Positions 1 to 4,292 of a stretch of 4,292 nt of DNA are shown piece after piece. The notes beneath the pieces are model-generated. The model searched no databases and was not told the origin of the DNA. It was given only the letters and a program-made list of their open reading frames with translations. A program made the translations under genes and the position numbers. Origin of the DNA: a virus (taxonomy: Duplodnaviria > Heunggongvirae > Uroviricota > Caudoviricetes); IMG/VR virus record IMGVR_UViG_3300000059_000174, positions 1 to 4,292 of that record. The stretch is one strand, 5' to 3'. How positions within the stretch are numbered: position 1 is the stretch's first letter; every line of letters begins with the position of its first letter.

Positions 1-48
1 TGGCACAAAGCGGACAACCACGCTAGCTCTACCCTGTGCCACAAAATG

Positions 49-507
49 TCAATTTGCATCTGAACTAATGCACTTTAATCTCGTCACTTCAATAAATACC
101 GAACATCCCCCCTGATAAAACGACAATATGCGCTGCATAACTTCGCTTTTACGACACTCAGTACAAATCATATTATGACGCCTGTCGTAACGACGTATTT
201 CTCCATCAGGTAATGACCAGATAAGGTCCGGATCAACCGCAGATGGTTTCTTCAGCTTTGCCCTTGAGAGCTTTTTACGGGCATTTTGCAAGTCCTTACG
301 CGCCTGTTCAGACGGGAATAACCCGTAACCAGAGTCGTATACATCGCCACTGGCAACCAGCTCTCTGGCCAGAACGCTCATCAGATATCTTGTTGCCCCA
401 GTTTTAGCTTCCAGTTGTCGTAACGTATCGCGCCCACTCTGGCGTACGAGTTCAACAACCTGCCCTTTAATTTTTTCCCGCTCTTCTTGTGTAAAAACTT
501 TTGCCAC
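49..507 (-). CDS. hypothetical protein (152 aa), last gene of the minus-strand early/replication operon in this window
   Basis: Uninterrupted ORF starting at GTG (505-507 on the complement), preceded by a strong Shine-Dalgarno AGGAGGG 3-4 nt upstream; stop TGA at 49-51. It begins 40 bp downstream of the initiator stop on the same strand. No Walker A motif, so it is not a DnaC-type loader. It has a C-terminal His/Cys cluster (HNMICTECRK ... GGC ... KC). Family not recognised. Confidence 0.55.
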   Translation of the reverse strand: MAKVFTQEEREKIKGQVVELVRQSGRDTLRQLEAKTGATRYLMSVLARELVASGDVYDSGYGLFPSEQARKDLQNARKKLSRAKLKKPSAVDPDLIWSLPDGEIRRYDRRHNMICTECRKSEVMQRILSFYQGGCSVFIEVTRLKCISSDAN

Positions 508-547
508 AAGCCCTCCTGAAAATTACCTCATGACCAGAAATTAACAC

Positions 548-1618
548 TTACCCCCTGAAGCCCGGCGGAATTTCGTTATCCGGTTCAGAAATATGATTCA
601 CACAACGCTGGTTGTTCGTGCCGCTTACCGGGAGCAACCAGGGGTTCTCAAAATTCCGGTCCGGTCCAAAAAACGTCGTCGCTCGCTGAACAAATTCCGT
701 TCCCGTTTTCCCGGTAGCCGCCAGGTATCTTGCGTAACGCCTCACACCATCCAGCATGGCCTCTGGTGGCACCCCCTCGCGTAATCTGGCCTTCCAGGCA
801 CTGAAAGCGGATTTCTTCGGGTTTGCCCCGGCACGCAACGGGTACTCCCGCCAGACCTGTTCGAACACATCCGGATAATCCACTCGTCCCACAGACTGCC
901 CGGTGTTTTCCGGGACTACCCGATCGGCTTCCCGCTGAATGGCGGAATCGGCTTCAGGCTGCTGCAGTTGGTGTGATTGCTCCGGCCTTGCGGTCATCAC
1001 CTGCTGCACAGCGCCCGAATCGGCTTTCAGCGCATACGCTGAATCGGCTTCCGGTGTCGTGCCTGCTGGCTGACCAGGATTGACGGTCTGAACATCCCCT
1101 GCCTGGTTCGTGGCGTTTTTTACGCCATGGATCATAGTGTTTTGATCTTCTTGATCTGTATCTTTATCTGTATCTTTATCTGTCGTGACTCGTCGTGACA
1201 TGTGCGTGACATTTCGTGACGCGCCGTGACAATCGCCATTTTGTTCCCGCTTTCTTTCCCTCTCTCGCTGCGCCCTCTTGCGCTCTGCAGGAGATTTTGC
1301 GGTTTGCGAAATATTGCCGTTGTCCTCTTTAAGCACCTGGCGTTTTTCCCATCCAGTGATTAAATCACCATCAAGTACCCGCCCCTGCATCGTCTGCAAA
1401 ATTGAATCAATTACCTCTTCTGTCACGTCGAGCGCACTTGCCAAATCTTCTGTCGTGACATCAATGTGACCTCGCGTGACATTTCGTGACGCGCTCACCA
1501 GGAGGTGGATATACACTGCCATCACTGTTGCAATTGGCTGCCCTGACACCCTGGCAATTGTTCGCCACTTAGGGTCATTTGGCATGTCATGCCATAATCT
1601 GAGCCAGGCGTTAGCCAT
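548..1618 (-). CDS. phage replication initiation protein (O / phi80 gp15-like) with a DnaT-like (primosomal protein I-like) C-terminal domain
   Basis: Long ORF (track 548..1624). I place the start at the ATG on 1616-1618 because of the SD AAGAGGTGA just upstream; the GTG at 1622-1624 lies inside that SD. The N-terminus (MANAWLRLWHDMPNDPKWRTIARV...) looks like a winged-helix DNA-binding domain. The middle is a low-complexity acidic linker (DKDTDKDTD, PEADSA repeats). The C-terminus (...YPDVF...VNHISEPDNEIPPGFRG) closely matches, from memory, the C-terminus of E. coli DnaT (...VNTVSEPDSQIPPGFRG). Phased iterons lie inside the gene. It sits where ydaU/O sits in Rac-like prophages. Confidence 0.8.
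   Translation of the reverse strand: MANAWLRLWHDMPNDPKWRTIARVSGQPIATVMAVYIHLLVSASRNVTRGHIDVTTEDLASALDVTEEVIDSILQTMQGRVLDGDLITGWEKRQVLKEDNGNISQTAKSPAERKRAQRERERKREQNGDCHGASRNVTHMSRRVTTDKDTDKDTDQEDQNTMIHGVKNATNQAGDVQTVNPGQPAGTTPEADSAYALKADSGAVQQVMTARPEQSHQLQQPEADSAIQREADRVVPENTGQSVGRVDYPDVFEQVWREYPLRAGANPKKSAFSAWKARLREGVPPEAMLDGVRRYARYLAATGKTGTEFVQRATTFFGPDRNFENPWLLPVSGTNNQRCVNHISEPDNEIPPGFRG
922..1052. repeat. four dispersed copies of the 9-10-mer (G)A(A)TCGGCTT(C) within the initiator linker-coding region
   Basis: GATCGGCTTCC at 922-932, GAATCGGCTTC at 945-955, GAATCGGCTTT at 1017-1027 and GAATCGGCTTCC at 1041-1052. They encode the repeated peptide motifs PEADSA / KADSG / READR on the minus strand. 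Confidence 0.4.
1144..1230. repeat. candidate replication origin element: two GATC sites, a 12-bp tandem repeat (2.5 copies) and five CGTGAC iterons at 10-11 bp phasing
   Basis: GATC at 1144-1147 and 1153-1156. ATCTGTATCTTT at 1154-1165 and 1166-1177, with a partial copy at 1178-1183; this block is about 70% AT by hand count. CGTGAC at 1184, 1194, 1205, 1215 and 1225, spaced 10, 11, 10, 10 bp, so all on one helix face. The whole element lies inside the initiator coding sequence, as ori-lambda lies inside gene O. Confidence 0.6.
1422..1498. repeat. second iteron cluster: (C/T)GTGAC at 1454, 1465, 1475, 1485, a degenerate fifth copy near 1494, and an inverted copy GTCACG at 1422-1427
   Basis: The 20-mer CGTGACATTTCGTGACGCGC is identical at 1205-1224 and 1475-1494. 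Spacing is again 10-11 bp. It lies in the coding region for the N-terminal domain of the initiator; the protein accordingly carries ASRNVT twice. Confidence 0.55.
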
Positions 1619-1689
1619 ACTCACCTCTTCTGATACCGAATCTTTTTACTCACGAGTTGCCGGAAGCGATTCGATATGGCTATTGTCAG

Positions 1690-2115
1690 TCAATGTACTG
1701 CCACAGCATTTCCTGCCGGACCACCACGGTTCATCTGATTGAAACCGGCGATTGCCACTGCGACAAAATCATCAGCGTCTCTCACCAGTCGCTCCCGCGT
1801 CTCCACCAGCTCCCGAAAATAAGCTGAACTGTGGCTGCGCATTCTGGCCACCAGCAAAGGTGGCATTGCCTTTTCGATTGCTGGTAACAACGCCTGAATT
1901 TTTTCAACTGCATCAGGGGTGTCTTTCTCCACCCAGCGGAAAATTTTCTGAGTATTGCGAGCCAGGGCTTCCGGATGGCTGTCGTCGTACAGTTCAGGAA
2001 ACGTCATACCCAGTTCGAAATAAGCCCTGGTTATCTCGGCTGCCGGAACTTTTTCACCGTCCGGATGCGCCCAAGCATTCATCGCCATGCGGATGTGTTC
2101 ATGCTTGATTTTCAT
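1690..2115 (-). CDS. ydaT: YdaT-like protein (cII-position early regulator of Rac-type prophages)
   Basis: 141-aa ORF beginning MKIKHEHI..., which I recall as the N-terminus typical of YdaT-family proteins. Its ATG overlaps the stop of the upstream cro-like gene (ATGA, 2112-2115), implying translational coupling. SD-like GGGAG lies 7 nt upstream. Synteny is cro-like, then this gene, then the initiator. Confidence 0.7.
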   Translation of the reverse strand: MKIKHEHIRMAMNAWAHPDGEKVPAAEITRAYFELGMTFPELYDDSHPEALARNTQKIFRWVEKDTPDAVEKIQALLPAIEKAMPPLLVARMRSHSSAYFRELVETRERLVRDADDFVAVAIAGFNQMNRGGPAGNAVAVH

Positions 2116-2372
2116 GAATCAACTCCCGCCACTTGCTGTGTGTTAGCCTGAAACTCAGCAGGCAAGCCGTCGTTTGGGTTGGGATAAATATCAGGGCGAA
2201 TTTCATGCGGGGTAACTTCCCAGCTCATTAGCTGACATAACGGAATTACCTGCTTTGGGGGAACGCCAAAGCTAAGCCATTGCCAAACAGTCTGTTGAGC
2301 GACCCCCATATAACGACCTATTTCAGCTTGAGAGAATTTCTGCCTAATTTTTTCGCGAGTGCTATCTAGCAT
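2112..2372 (-). CDS. ydaS: Cro/YdaS-like HTH DNA-binding regulator
   Basis: 86-aa ORF with a strong SD GAGGAGGG 4 nt upstream of the ATG (2370-2372 on the complement). It has an HTH segment SQAEIGRYMGVAQQTVWQWLSFGVPPK and the motif HEIRPDIYP that I associate with the YdaS/Cro-like family. It is divergent from the repressor gene across a 109-bp AT-rich intergenic region. Confidence 0.75.
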   Translation of the reverse strand: MLDSTREKIRQKFSQAEIGRYMGVAQQTVWQWLSFGVPPKQVIPLCQLMSWEVTPHEIRPDIYPNPNDGLPAEFQANTQQVAGVDS

Positions 2373-2481
2373 TTTGCCCTCCTCTAAGAACTATAGGCAA
2401 AAGACTACAATAAAAAACTGTACACAATCAACAGTTTTTTATTGTGATGCTTTTAACAGTATTTCCCTGTAAAATTAAACG
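2373..2481. promoter_or_regulatory. divergent promoter/operator region between the cro-like and repressor genes, containing the palindrome AAAACTGT-N9-ACAGTTTT (2414-2438)
   Basis: The region is AT-rich. It holds a perfect inverted repeat with 10-bp arms, AAAAAACTGT (2412-2421) and ACAGTTTTTT (2431-2440), around a 9-bp spacer. There is an extra ACAGT half-site at 2456-2460. A -10-like TAAAAT at 2470-2475 lies 7 nt before the repressor ATG. Exact -35/-10 pairs cannot be assigned with confidence. Confidence 0.6.
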
Positions 2482-2883
2482 ATGATGAACGCCTTAGAAG
2501 TATCTATGTACAGAATCAGCAAGCTTCTCCAAGAAACAGGATGGAGCCAGGCTGAGCTTGCTCGTAGAATTGGTGTGACACAACAAACTGTTCAACAATG
2601 GGTCAGCGGTAAAGCTACACCTAAAGCCTCAAGTTTGGATAAACTGGTTGAGGTTACAGGGCATCCATTGCATTGGTTTTTATTGCCTCCTGAAGAAGGT
2701 GAGCAAATCTTCACCCCTGATACGATGAAAATTGGTCCTCGCCAACGCGAACTGCTCCAGGCTTTTAGTGCGTTTCCAGAAGAAGACCAAGAAAAAATGC
2801 TTCAGGAAATCAAAGACAAGAAAAAATCAATGGAAGAAACCATTGCTCGATGGTTGGCGGCGCAAAAAATCCGCCGAGCGTGA
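2482..2883 (+). CDS. paaR2: short CI-position XRE-family HTH repressor (DicA-like / PaaR2-like), first gene of the regulator-antitoxin-toxin operon
   Basis: 133-aa ORF starting with tandem ATG ATG (2482, 2485) and no recognisable SD. N-terminal HTH: WSQAELARRIGVTQQTVQQWVSGKATPK. The C-terminal region (PRQRELLQAFSAFPEEDQEKMLQEIK...) resembles my recollection of DicA-type short repressors. There is no LexA/S24-type peptidase domain. The gene symbol rests on synteny and size only, not on an alignment. Confidence 0.8.
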   Translation: MMNALEVSMYRISKLLQETGWSQAELARRIGVTQQTVQQWVSGKATPKASSLDKLVEVTGHPLHWFLLPPEEGEQIFTPDTMKIGPRQRELLQAFSAFPEEDQEKMLQEIKDKKKSMEETIARWLAAQKIRRA

Positions 2884-2908
2884 CCAGTGAACAAAGAGGA
2901 GTTATGTC

Positions 2909-3100
2909 ATGAGTACAGCCCTTTCTCCGATAGTTTCAGAATTCGAAACTACCGAACAAGAAAACAGTTACAACGAATGGTTGCGCGCTAAAGTCGCGTC
3001 AAGCCTTGCAGATCCTCGCCCCGCAATACCGCATGACGAGGTGATGGCTGAAATGGAAAATCTTATTGCTCAAATTGCTGCGACTAGCGGGAGTGTGTAA
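2909..3100 (+). CDS. paaA2: type II antitoxin of a ParE-family toxin (PaaA2-like, 63 aa)
   Basis: 63-aa ORF with SD GAGGAG (2896-2901) 7 nt upstream of the ATG at 2909. Its stop TAA (3098-3100) overlaps the toxin ATG (3100-3102) by 1 nt (TAATG). It is small, acidic and helical in character and sits immediately upstream of a ParE-like ORF. The length matches the 63-residue PaaA2 as I recall it. Confidence 0.8.
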   Translation: MSTALSPIVSEFETTEQENSYNEWLRAKVASSLADPRPAIPHDEVMAEMENLIAQIAATSGSV

Positions 3101-3387
3101 TGCTACCCATTTTATGGCTACCATCTGCTCGCGATGATTTGCGTCAGATCGTAGCCTATATTGCCAAGGAAAATGTTCCAGCAGCTCGTAGACTAAAAAT
3201 ACGTATTGAAACGTCTGTTTTAGCCCTCTCAGAGCATCCATATCTATATCCGCCAAGTGATAGAGTATCCGGTTTGCGGGAAATTGTAGCTCACCCTAAT
3301 TATATCGTTTTGTACCGTGTAGCAGCTTCAAGCATTGAAATTGTAAATATTGTGCATGCCCGCAGACAGTTTCCCTTCCCTGCCTGA
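3100..3387 (+). CDS. parE2: ParE/RelE-superfamily toxin (ParE2-like)
   Basis: 95-aa ORF with the family-typical pattern MLPILWLPSARDDLRQIVAYIAKEN ... IVLYRV ... IEIVNIVHARR. SD GGGAG lies 6 nt upstream. It is translationally coupled to the antitoxin and followed 19 nt later by an intrinsic terminator. Confidence 0.85.
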   Translation: MLPILWLPSARDDLRQIVAYIAKENVPAARRLKIRIETSVLALSEHPYLYPPSDRVSGLREIVAHPNYIVLYRVAASSIEIVNIVHARRQFPFPA

Positions 3388-3405
3388 ACCGAAAGATTTT
3401 CACAC

Positions 3406-3429
3406 TCCCTCATACGAGGGATTTTTTTT
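3406..3429 (+). terminator. rho-independent terminator closing the repressor-antitoxin-toxin operon
   Basis: Stem TCCCTC (3406-3411), loop ATAC, stem GAGGGA (3416-3421), followed directly by eight T (3422-3429). On the minus strand there is no T-run after the hairpin, so it is unidirectional. Confidence 0.7.
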
Positions 3430-3445
3430 GCCAAAAAAACAATTT

Positions 3446-3470
3446 AAAACTGTTGACACCAAACAGTTTT
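3446..3470. promoter_or_regulatory. second copy of the operator palindrome AAAACTGT-N9-ACAGTTTT with an embedded -35 hexamer TTGACA (OL/PL-like site)
   Basis: AAAACTGT at 3446-3453, 9-bp spacer, ACAGTTTT at 3463-3470. The arms and spacing are the same as the site at 2414-2438. A consensus -35 TTGACA sits at 3453-3458. The -10 is unclear (TAGTTT-like around 3477-3482). Confidence 0.55.
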
Positions 3471-3579
3471 TAATTGTAGTTTGTTTTCACAAACCACCCC
3501 GTCCCACAGAATGCAGGGCAATACTTCGAGTTACCAGGCAGTGGTCAGGGGTTAAGTAGCCAGCCCGAGGCGTAAGAAC

Positions 3580-3813
3580 ATGACGGCAGGGTTCAACTTT
3601 AATAACTATGCAGCAGGTTTTTGTTCCGCTACCCCGGCGTTAAGGGGAAATGAGGTCAGCATGGATACTATCGATCTTGGCAACAACGAATCTCTGGTGT
3701 GCGGCGAGTTCCCCAACCAGGACGGTACGTTCACCGCGATGACATATACCAAAAACAAAACGTTTAAAACCGAATCTGGCGAGCGTCGCTGGTTAACCAG
3801 AAACACTGACTGA
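3580..3813 (+). CDS. small hypothetical protein; more likely start at ATG 3661 (50 aa) than at 3580 (77 aa)
   Basis: The ORF is on the strand expected for transcription from the PL-like promoter. The internal ATG at 3661 has SD GAGGT (3652-3656) 4 nt upstream; the ATG at 3580 has only GAGG 9 nt upstream. Stop TGA at 3811-3813. No recognisable family. Confidence 0.4.
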   Translation: MTAGFNFNNYAAGFCSATPALRGNEVSMDTIDLGNNESLVCGEFPNQDGTFTAMTYTKNKTFKTESGERRWLTRNTD

Positions 3814-3824
3814 TGAGGCTGACG

Positions 3825-3983
3825 ATGGAATTTAAAGATTTACCTCCAGACACTCAGAAAATCGCCGCAGAAACACTGAAATCTCTCATTTTGGACGAGG
3901 AGACAGAAAAGGTAGAGCCAGCTAAAAAACTGGCTCAAGAAATCAGAGAAGCCTTTATTGCTCTTTATCAGTCTTCTCCATAG
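3825..3983 (+). CDS. small hypothetical protein (52 aa), not in the supplied ORF track
   Basis: ATG at 3825 with SD GAGG (3815-3818) 6 nt upstream, 12 nt after the previous stop. It translates to MEFKDLPPDTQKIAAETLKSLILDEETEKVEPAKKLAQEIREAFIALYQSSP, ending at TAG 3981-3983. The sequence is charged and helical in character. Confidence 0.4.
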   Translation: MEFKDLPPDTQKIAAETLKSLILDEETEKVEPAKKLAQEIREAFIALYQSSP

Positions 3984-4140
3984 AGGCTTTTTTTTCTTCT
4001 TCCAATATATTGCGAATTGTAATAACTGAATTGGCCGCCTCTGAAGGGGATGACATTTTGCCAGCCCGAATTAACTCAACTGTTAAGTTCAAAGCTGCAA
4101 CAGATGGATAGGTAAATGGGTTAATTAACTTGTCTGACAT
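3955..4140 (-). CDS. small hypothetical protein (61 aa from the SD-supported ATG)
   Basis: The track ORF is 3955..4152, but the ATG on 4138-4140 is preceded by a near-perfect SD GGAGGA with a 4-5 nt spacer (ATGGAGGATAAAATG), so I call the start there. The protein is MSDKLINPFTYPSVAALNLTVELIRAGK... Its 3' end overlaps the convergent 52-aa ORF by 29 bp. Confidence 0.5.
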   Translation of the reverse strand: MSDKLINPFTYPSVAALNLTVELIRAGKMSSPSEAANSVITIRNILEEEKKASMEKTDKEQ

Positions 4141-4292
4141 TTTATCCTCCATTTAGGTTCTGGGTTAGAAATGGAGACCAACACGCTGCTACGTGTGGTC
4201 GTGCGCCGGACACGGATAAGAATCCGGCACTGACAGTTTACTGAAAGGATATTTCCCTGAAAAGTCAGGGCATAACACGAAAGCGTACGGCG

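Follow-up and report, generated by a model that had tools for sequence, protein, structure and literature searches.

How does a lambdoid phage with a single replication gene bring the replicative helicase to its origin? The question is raised by a stretch of 4,292 nucleotides (positions 1 to 4,292 of the IMG/VR virus record IMGVR_UViG_3300000059_000174; hereafter the window), in which a Rac/lambda-like Escherichia coli prophage has its immunity and early-right region. Its replication initiator gene (548..1618, minus strand; ATG at 1618, stop codon TAA at 548-550) is an intact open reading frame of 356 codons, and no P, DnaC-like or DnaB-like gene lies adjacent to it in the window. An earlier note on this DNA had proposed that the encoded protein joins an iteron-binding N-terminal domain to a C-terminus resembling that of the E. 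coli primosomal protein DnaT, and that the phage loads the host helicase through the PriA/PriB/DnaT restart route, or mimics DnaT, instead of using a lambda P-type loader. Here we describe that the likeness to DnaT lies in a short C-terminal tail, and that this tail is found on many different initiators and accompanies the genes of DnaC-type helicase loaders. We give a somewhat better than even chance to the reading that the tail of the initiator recruits a DnaC-type loader, or DnaB-DnaC, at the phage origin.

The DnaT-like part of the initiator

The C-terminal strings on which the comparison with DnaT had been built (YPDVFEQVW, FVQRATTFFG and VNHISEPDNEIPPGFRG) are all present in the 548..1618 reading frame, and the DnaT terminus given for that comparison proved exact when set against E. 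coli K-12 DnaT, which ends in VNTVSEPDSQIPPGFRG. The likeness had been placed in the last 100 residues or so, but only residues ~332-356 bear it out. In a BLASTP comparison of the initiator with DnaT, residues 332-356 aligned with DnaT residues 155-179 (15/25 identical, pairwise E = 1e-7), and nothing outside the tail aligned, with no similarity to the N-domain of DnaT or to its PriB-docking linker. Residues 247-326, which had been counted as part of the DnaT-like region, form a different helical module, probably of the DnaD/replisome-organiser type, referred to below as module X. An alignment of residues from about 250 to 356 with DnaT does therefore detect similarity, as had been anticipated, but this similarity is confined to the tail, and the Pfam DnaT domain PF17948 (DnaT residues 84-153) was not matched by the initiator even at E = 10.

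Within the last 17 residues (340-356, VNHISEPDNEIPPGFRG; 551..601, minus strand), 13/17 are identical between the initiator and DnaT, and both motifs stand at the extreme C-terminus. In AlphaFold models the C-terminal region of residues 333-356 is disordered, the predicted local distance difference test score (pLDDT) of the tail being 46-59. The DnaT chains 6aep, 2ru8 and 9zbt of the PDB matched the initiator over residues 333/335/336-356 with E = 0.003 to 0.07 (177,635 sequences), and the NCBIfam DnaT model NF002770 matched residues 333-356 to its positions 156-179 with E = 7e-4, at 19.2 bits against a cut-off of 201 bits. Four of the five features that define membership in the DnaT family were not found in the initiator; the disordered C-terminal tail was the only one present.

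DnaT proteins from E. coli as far as Buchnera have the tail motif RD[IV][NT]..[SP].PD..[IVT]P.GFRG in conserved form. The tail is likewise kept in homologues of the initiator at ~50% identity, while the preceding ~15 residues vary freely. Among 75 distinct tail DNAs, the invariant residues S, P, D, I, P and G are encoded by 3-6 synonymous codons each, and tail positions -13 to -4 are invariant despite abundant synonymous change. Such synonymous variation at invariant residues indicates that selection acts on the tail peptide.

Occurrence of the tail on other initiators

By means of a degenerate pattern, IMG/VR was searched for DNA that could encode P-[DE]-x-x-I-P-x-G-F-R-G-stop, and loci already in the comparison were included. 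Tail-bearing proteins amounted to at least 133 distinct sequences in at least 18 clusters, with at least 10 types of N-domain. At least four kinds of domain precede the tail in them: module X, a KNIMSPSKLREKWDELVIRL-type domain, a SIANEYQGLF-type domain and the true DnaT bundle. This distribution is that of a portable C-terminal peptide. As at least four unrelated domains stand before it, a cis or trans contact with the neighbouring domain is unlikely to be the function common to all.

A tail of this kind is also present in the Rac prophage of E. coli K-12, where YdaU (b1359, DUF1376, 285 aa; L205:2620-3477) ends in RQVNTVSLPDSAIPPGFRG, which is almost the DnaT tail. The DnaC-like gene ydaV (L205:3484-4230) starts 6 nt after ydaU. 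K-12 thus carries a second pair of tail and DnaC, YdaU-YdaV, besides dnaT-dnaC.

Tail-bearing initiators without a loader gene, other than that of the window, were found in clusters C07, C08, C12 and C17 and at locus L368. Some of the loader-less proteins consist of a full DnaT bundle with the tail and are followed by a RuvC-like gene. The L368 protein, from Salmonella phage 118970_sal3 (L368:2039-2851), ends in the variant ...YSQIPTGFRG, in which the S-x-P-D part is missing.

Linkage of the tail to DnaC-type loader genes

The working idea that initiators with the tail generally do without a loader gene was rejected, as a DnaC homologue lies directly downstream in most of them. In 12/17 evaluable clusters, a full-length DnaC homologue starts -4 to +6 nt from the stop codon of the tail, and these homologues share 47-50% identity with E. 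coli DnaC (E = 1e-82 to 1e-92). In Shigella phage POCJ13, for example, the coding sequence (CDS) of 'primosomal protein I', composed of module X and the tail, spans 2090-3085, and that of DnaC begins 6 nt on (3092-3832). In the reverse test we took the best 80 of at least 584 IMG/VR matches to DnaC, two of these 80 being the host dnaT-dnaC. The upstream gene ends in the tail at 72/80 of these dnaC-like loci (44/52 distinct C-termini), and at one more the tail is degenerate. The DnaCs paired with GFRG termini diverge to 44% identity, and the tail persists.

At five dnaC-like loci (L216, L257, L263, L265 and L275), the initiator upstream of the dnaC-like match, at about locus position 3500 or before, ends in ...R[IV].[QR]P.R...FI[PS]EDF-COOH. 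The DnaCs beside these termini form a separate clade, with 85% mutual identity and at most 53% identity to the rest, and the fixed differences of this clade include R40D, which is a charge reversal, and A88S.

As a control, we used 80 loci with a lambda P-type loader, 78 of which have evaluable upstream initiators. The tail was present on 0/78 of the initiators upstream of a P-type loader, despite the same N-domains, including that of the window protein; all 78 end in ...EALDCPDW[CR]DD. This suggests that, irrespective of the DNA-binding domain, the tail is the sign of an initiator with a DnaC-type partner, and another terminus that of an initiator with a lambda P-type partner. The acidic ...EALDCPDWCDD-type terminus may be to P-type loaders what the tail is to DnaC-type ones. 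Phage POCJ13 fits the pattern, as does an Stx1 phage, in which a tail-less O protein with module X is followed by the phage's own divergent loader and a putative DnaB-type helicase.

In the Stx1a-converting phage Stx1_14744, a 292-aa product annotated as 'DNA helicase' (L367:2928-3806) has the DnaC-like C-terminus ...SFNWPSYRAHAGG, and a 466-aa 'replication protein' follows, which is DnaB-like as judged from its termini alone. From these sequences, the two annotation labels may be swapped or imprecise.

The linkage also bears on the restart route. If the tail docked on PriA or PriB, the phage origin would become the site at which the initiator nucleates a restart primosome of the PriA type, and DnaB would arrive via the host PriA, PriB, DnaT and DnaC. 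DnaT does dock on PriA with its C-terminal domain, at an interface that is hydrophobic and conserved (PMC13377028), and IPPGF in the tail is a hydrophobic segment; the text of that paper, however, names no PriA-contacting DnaT residues. Such docking would also suit the loader-less initiators of clusters C07, C12 and C17 that are composed of a complete DnaT bundle with the tail, and the restart route is known to be used by phiX174, Mu and ColE1 plasmids (PMC5778457, PMC4129139). Yet the window protein has no three-helix bundle, no PriB-binding linker of the DnaT type and no similarity to the DnaT N-domain, and docking on PriA or PriB gives no obvious reason for the coupling of the tail to dnaC at 72/80 loci and for its absence before P-type loaders. 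We therefore regard this explanation as unlikely. The earlier suggestion of a PriA/PriB/DnaT route found no evidence in its favour, the tail tracking DnaC-type loaders.

Termini resembling that of DnaT are already known on phage initiators, where they underlie annotations such as 'primosomal protein I' and 'DnaT-like ssDNA-binding domain-containing protein' (ssDNA, single-stranded DNA). What appears to be undescribed in the literature searched is that the tail is separable from the bundle, that it is portable, and that it tracks the type of loader.

Loss of the loader gene in the lineage of the window

Downstream of the initiator, the window has a spacer of 31 nt (517..547) at the place where relatives carry ~1.5 kb with a dnaC-like gene and a gene of ~250 aa. 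Window positions 1026..548 align with L221 3013..3494, and window positions 516..131 with L221 5043..5428. L201, a locus of the Rac type, shows the same ~1.5-kb insertion pattern, the alignment resuming at window position ~516-521, just upstream of the gene for a DUF977 protein. These alignments indicate that the window lineage deleted a ~1.5-kb dnaC cassette and kept the tail. The view that the phage does not use a lambda P-type loader was thus correct, its ancestral partner having been a phage-encoded DnaC homologue that has since been deleted. It was also correct that no loader follows in the window, but the 152-aa product, then described as unknown, is a DUF977/Ren-like exclusion protein and not a loader (49..507, minus strand; PF06163, E = 1.4e-27; phrog_142).

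No helicase, loader or primase gene was found across 22 kb, from integrase to terminase, of a 95%-identical prophage (L001), and all three are absent from the phage record ON470583. As the lineage's own dnaC homologue has been deleted, the loader must be host DnaC or that of a co-resident prophage, and we infer from this gene content that the window phage depends on host DnaC.

The junction with the lost gene has left a trace. The last two tail codons with the stop codon, AGG GGG TAA (548..556, minus strand), are a relic of the dnaC Shine-Dalgarno/coupling junction. Among the 75 distinct tail DNAs, AGG accounts for 64/73 Arg codons and GGG for 64/75 Gly codons at these two positions, and this rare codon pair forms the Shine-Dalgarno sequence of dnaC. 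The 3' end of the host dnaT (L003:2979-3040) reads TTC AGA GGG TAA CG ATG AAA AAC, in which ATG AAA AAC is the start of dnaC. The AGR GGG end of the tail, as read from host and phage sequences alike, is a clear case in which peptide and translation-signal constraints overlap.

This raises the explanation that the tail is a functionless relic that came along with the dnaC cassette, mainly as the ribosome-binding and coupling signal of dnaC, in a prophage that is defective in replication. The codon bias, the same junction in the host dnaT-dnaC and the loss of the cassette in the window lineage all speak for it, and many E. coli lambdoid prophages are cryptic, Rac being annotated so. Against it, tail residues -13 to -4 are invariant under extensive synonymous change. 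The tail is, moreover, intact in 94/94 window-type loci retrieved and in variants with linker deletions, although the power to detect its decay is weak because window-type sequences are at least ~95% identical to one another. The initiator reading frame is intact in a cluster of 5786, and a 99.2%-identical initiator without a loader is present in a phage-deposited record. A functionless relic is, on balance, quite unlikely.

Proposed role of the tail at the phage origin

In the mechanism that we propose, the N-domain would oligomerise on GTCACG iterons and destabilise an A+T-rich segment, and the tail, as a short docking peptide, would capture either a DnaC-type loader or the complex DnaB6-DnaC6. 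The captured loader would then deliver DnaB to the opened phage origin. This loader would be host DnaC or one supplied by a co-resident prophage, and PriA and PriB would not be needed. A contact between the tail and DnaC (or DnaB-DnaC) is suggested by the gene linkage together with the conservation at the peptide level. No contact of DnaC with PriA, PriB or DnaT has been demonstrated, and the dnaC1331 mutation (A84Y) specifically blocks the PriA/PriB/DnaT pathway (PMC5778457, PMC11087952, PMC13377028). In our comparison, A84 is invariant in the host DnaC and 10 phage DnaCs.

A broader proposal, which we put forward tentatively and to which we give somewhat less than an even chance, is that the DnaT tail is the long-sought recruiter of DnaC or DnaB6-DnaC6 to the restart preprimosome, and that many phage initiators use the same peptide. 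In that case dnaT-dnaC would be a domesticated module of a phage initiator C-terminus and its loader, and the window phage would be a natural experiment in which the peptide is left with host DnaC alone.

Several points weigh against recruitment of a DnaC-type loader by the tail. No physical interaction of the tail with DnaC, DnaB or any other protein has been reported in the literature searched, and a cryo-electron microscopy paper of 2026 favours the N-domain of DnaT as the recruiter of DnaB/DnaC (PMC13377028). Part of the conservation of the tail is at the nucleotide level, because its last two codons are the dnaC Shine-Dalgarno sequence. The loci on which the linkage counts are based are phylogenetically non-independent, and the P-loader control consists of a single lineage of near-identical P. 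Linkage of the tail with dnaC is also expected if both move as one recombination cassette, and five tail-bearing clusters, including that of the window, have no adjacent dnaC. Support for replication of a loader-less prophage comes from one GenBank phage record only, which is labelled a partial genome.

Finally, the tail of DnaT itself has been linked to other functions. Its removal turns trimers into dimers, which links it to trimerisation (Szymanski 2013, as summarised in PMC5314882), and it is also linked to cooperative ssDNA binding, as its removal raises the Kd from 9.9 to 27 uM and lowers the Hill coefficient from 2.7 to 2.1 (PMC4132743). Both reports would fit an initiator tail that aids self-association or ssDNA binding within the initiator oligomer, and is not a docking site for another protein. 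However, such a role leaves the link between the tail and the loader type unexplained, and we hold it to be decidedly improbable.

The handover from the PriA/PriB/DnaT preprimosome to DnaB-DnaC has been open for decades, and recent papers state explicitly that DnaT is not known to contact DnaC or DnaB (PMC11087952, PMC13377028). Docking of the loader by the tail would explain how a lambdoid phage manages with a single replication gene. For annotation, the pattern means that 'primosomal protein I' or 'DnaT-like' on a phage initiator can stand for the bundle or for the tail only. The value of the locus lies in a concrete and cheap test of an old question more than in the gene itself.

Domain architecture of the initiator

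The N-terminal module (residues 1-~126; 1241..1618, minus strand) has AlphaFold2 helices at residues 2-77 and 110-126 (pLDDT ~80), which correspond to a helical N-domain of residues 1-~90 and a basic helix of residues 110-126. The expected match of residues 1-120 to replisome-organiser profiles was obtained at a weak level only, with E = 0.12 for PF09681 (Phage_rep_org_N; 12.8 bits against a cut-off of 23.3 bits) and E = 0.016 for TIGR01714; PHROG replisome-organiser families match residues 4-160. A Foldseek search with the module gave winged-helix matches that were weak and non-significant. This module is probably a winged-helix origin-binding domain with a basic helix. Pfam and NCBIfam scans with the whole protein and with each half returned no DnaT-domain match, and their replisome-organiser matches were all below threshold.

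The linker (residues 128-244; 887..1237, minus strand) is predicted to be disordered (pLDDT <50), and it is acidic, rich in Pro, Gln and Ala, and marked by PEADSA repeats. These PEADSA-type peptide repeats are encoded by a 36-nt direct repeat, D2 (923-958 and 1019-1054; residues ~188-232). Close homologues of 324, 302 and 344 aa have in-frame deletions in this region, which indicates that the length of the linker is unconstrained.

Module X (residues 247-326; 641..880, minus strand) is a predicted four-helix domain with pLDDT >90. It has no Pfam match or model, and its similarity to the three-helix bundle of DnaT is at a weak profile level only. In structure it comes closest to DnaD-like proteins and phage replisome organisers, and it is probably a domain of the DnaD/replisome-organiser C-terminal type, and not a recognisable DnaT bundle. 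The module is very widespread, with 4065 clusters at 50% identity and phage initiators by the thousands. Elsewhere it is preceded by N-domains of the HTH_36, DUF1376, DnaD_N, MarR-like, lambda Phage_rep_O and Phage_rep_org_N types. The tail is present on only ~17 of the top 150 module-X representatives.

Origin-like repeats and the mosaic junction

Two iteron-like arrays lie within the initiator gene. Array A (1454..1490) consists, on the gene strand, of four GTCAC(G) copies at spacings of 10, 10 and 11 bp, and array B (1184..1230) has five copies of GTCACG, spaced by 10, 10, 11 and 10 bp. Array B is adjoined by D3, an A+T-rich 12-bp triple repeat that is GATAAAGATACA-like on the gene strand (1149..1184), and this repeat is a candidate unwinding element. 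The window has 5 copies of the heptamer TCGTGAC where 0.43 are expected, 5 copies being reached in 0/200 shuffles, and CGTGAC/GTCACG occurs nine times in the initiator gene against once in the remaining 3221 nt of the window.

Two other loci share different parts of this region. L342, which has a P-type loader, is 97.6% identical to window positions 2120..1161, and window positions 1143..548 are matched at 95.6% identity by L087, whose N-domain is a different one. The mosaic junction lies at 1143-1161, inside the A+T-rich triple repeat, and the comparison of both loci indicates that the N-domain and the repeat arrays are inherited as a single block. Thus, as far as these alignments tell, the initiator is built of two exchangeable modules, one comprising the N-domain with the iterons and the other the linker, module X and the tail. 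The repeats and their co-inheritance with the N-domain support the iteron-binding N-domain that had been envisaged; the binding of GTCACG iterons by this domain is what we infer from that co-inheritance and from the likeness to lambda O.

Genomic setting

By sequence, the gene is a known and very common lambdoid replication initiator of E. coli prophages. The protein matches phrog_3729, 'replication initiation protein', over residues 1-356/356 (E = 1e-257), its NCBI name is 'phage replisome organizer', and 5786 sequences share its 90% cluster (P0001). Escherichia phage vB_EcoS-689R5 encodes a 'DNA replication protein O' with 99.2% identity to it; the record of this phage, like the window, has no loader gene, and no paper describing phage 689R5 was found in the literature searched. 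An in-frame GTG is present at 1624, two codons upstream of the initiator ATG.

The cI-like repressor gene (2482-2883) is on the plus strand. Leftward from it, all on the minus strand, follow the YdaS/cro-like gene (2112-2372), the YdaT/cII-like gene (1690-2115), the initiator gene and the DUF977 gene, so that the initiator occupies the lambdoid early-right position downstream of cro/cII-type genes. Prophages in 32 complete genomes of E. coli match the DNA of the window at 95% identity.

Directly 3' of the repressor gene, a type II toxin-antitoxin pair of the PaaA2-type/ParE kind is inserted, both genes being on the plus strand: a PaaA2-type antitoxin (2909-3100; PF21217, E = 3e-22) and a ParE toxin (3100-3387; PF05016, E = 1e-16). 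A palindrome at 2407-2445 (ACAATAAAAAACTGT, 9 nt, ACAGTTTTTTATTGT) lies between the repressor gene and the divergent cro-like gene and is an inverted repeat without mismatches, and a similar one is found at 3439-3477 (ACAATTTAAAACTGT, 9 nt, ACAGTTTTTAATTGT), beyond the toxin-antitoxin pair. From their sequence and placement, the two palindromes look like candidate operator sites that bracket the immunity cassette.

Comparison with known systems

The closest likeness at the C-terminus is to E. coli DnaT (NF002770, PF17948). The last 17-25 residues are homologous, with the pattern V-N-x-[IV]-S-E-P-D-x-x-I-P-P-G-F-R-G-COOH, and in both proteins they are extreme C-terminal and predicted or reported to be disordered. 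The junction of tail, stop codon and dnaC in the relatives of the initiator is also that of the dnaT-dnaC operon. Unlike DnaT, the initiator lacks the DnaT N-domain, the PriB-docking linker and a recognisable three-helix ssDNA-binding bundle, it adds a putative sequence-specific origin-binding module, and dnaC is not the next gene in the window.

With lambda O and ori-lambda, the system shares the early-right position and the placement of phased iterons and an A+T-rich segment inside the initiator gene, at the boundary of its modules. The division of labour may be similar as well, with the N-module binding DNA and the C-module recruiting the helicase-loading machinery. In contrast to lambda O and P, the initiator has no significant match to Pfam Phage_rep_O, its iterons have another sequence, there is no P gene, and its C-terminus is of the kind found beside DnaC-type loaders and not beside P.

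Rac YdaU-YdaV and phage POCJ13 have the same tail, and POCJ13 has module X as well; a downstream gene of ~250 aa, followed by DUF977/LygF, is common among them. They differ in that their own DnaC homologue starts 6 nt after the tail stop codon, whereas the window lineage has lost ~1.5 kb. YdaU differs further from the window initiator in its DUF1376 N-domain and in its pre-tail domain.

The O157-type sister allele (P0068/P0098, 'DnaT-like ssDNA-binding domain-containing protein'; L336, L342) has the same N-module and iterons, at 85-97% identity. Unlike the window initiator, it contains a true DnaT bundle, with 56% identity to DnaT 82-153 (E = 4e-23), and no tail, and it ends in the acidic ...EALDCPDWCDD or ...FEPLD.EERGRTFEALDCPDW[CR]DD, after which a lambda P-type loader follows. 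With the tail in the window protein and the bundle in the sister allele, two alleles of one initiator match different, non-overlapping parts of the DnaT C-terminus.

DnaD and organisers of the SPP1 G38P type have a winged-helix N-domain with a small helical C-domain, a plan that the window initiator probably shares. The C-terminal tip of SSB (DDDIPF) is comparable by analogy only, with no homology, being a short, disordered and conserved C-terminal peptide that is acidic and then hydrophobic and, like the tail, could be a handle on which a protein docks; the ...FIPEDF termini beside the other DnaC clade look more SSB-like than the GFRG tail. A described precedent is DopC, an O-like protein with a DnaT-like C-terminal element, in which a DnaT_C motif was reported by Brezellec et al. 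2017, where dnaC is also regarded as phage-derived (PMC5509034). On that view of dnaC, DnaT may have inherited its tail from a phage initiator, and not the reverse.

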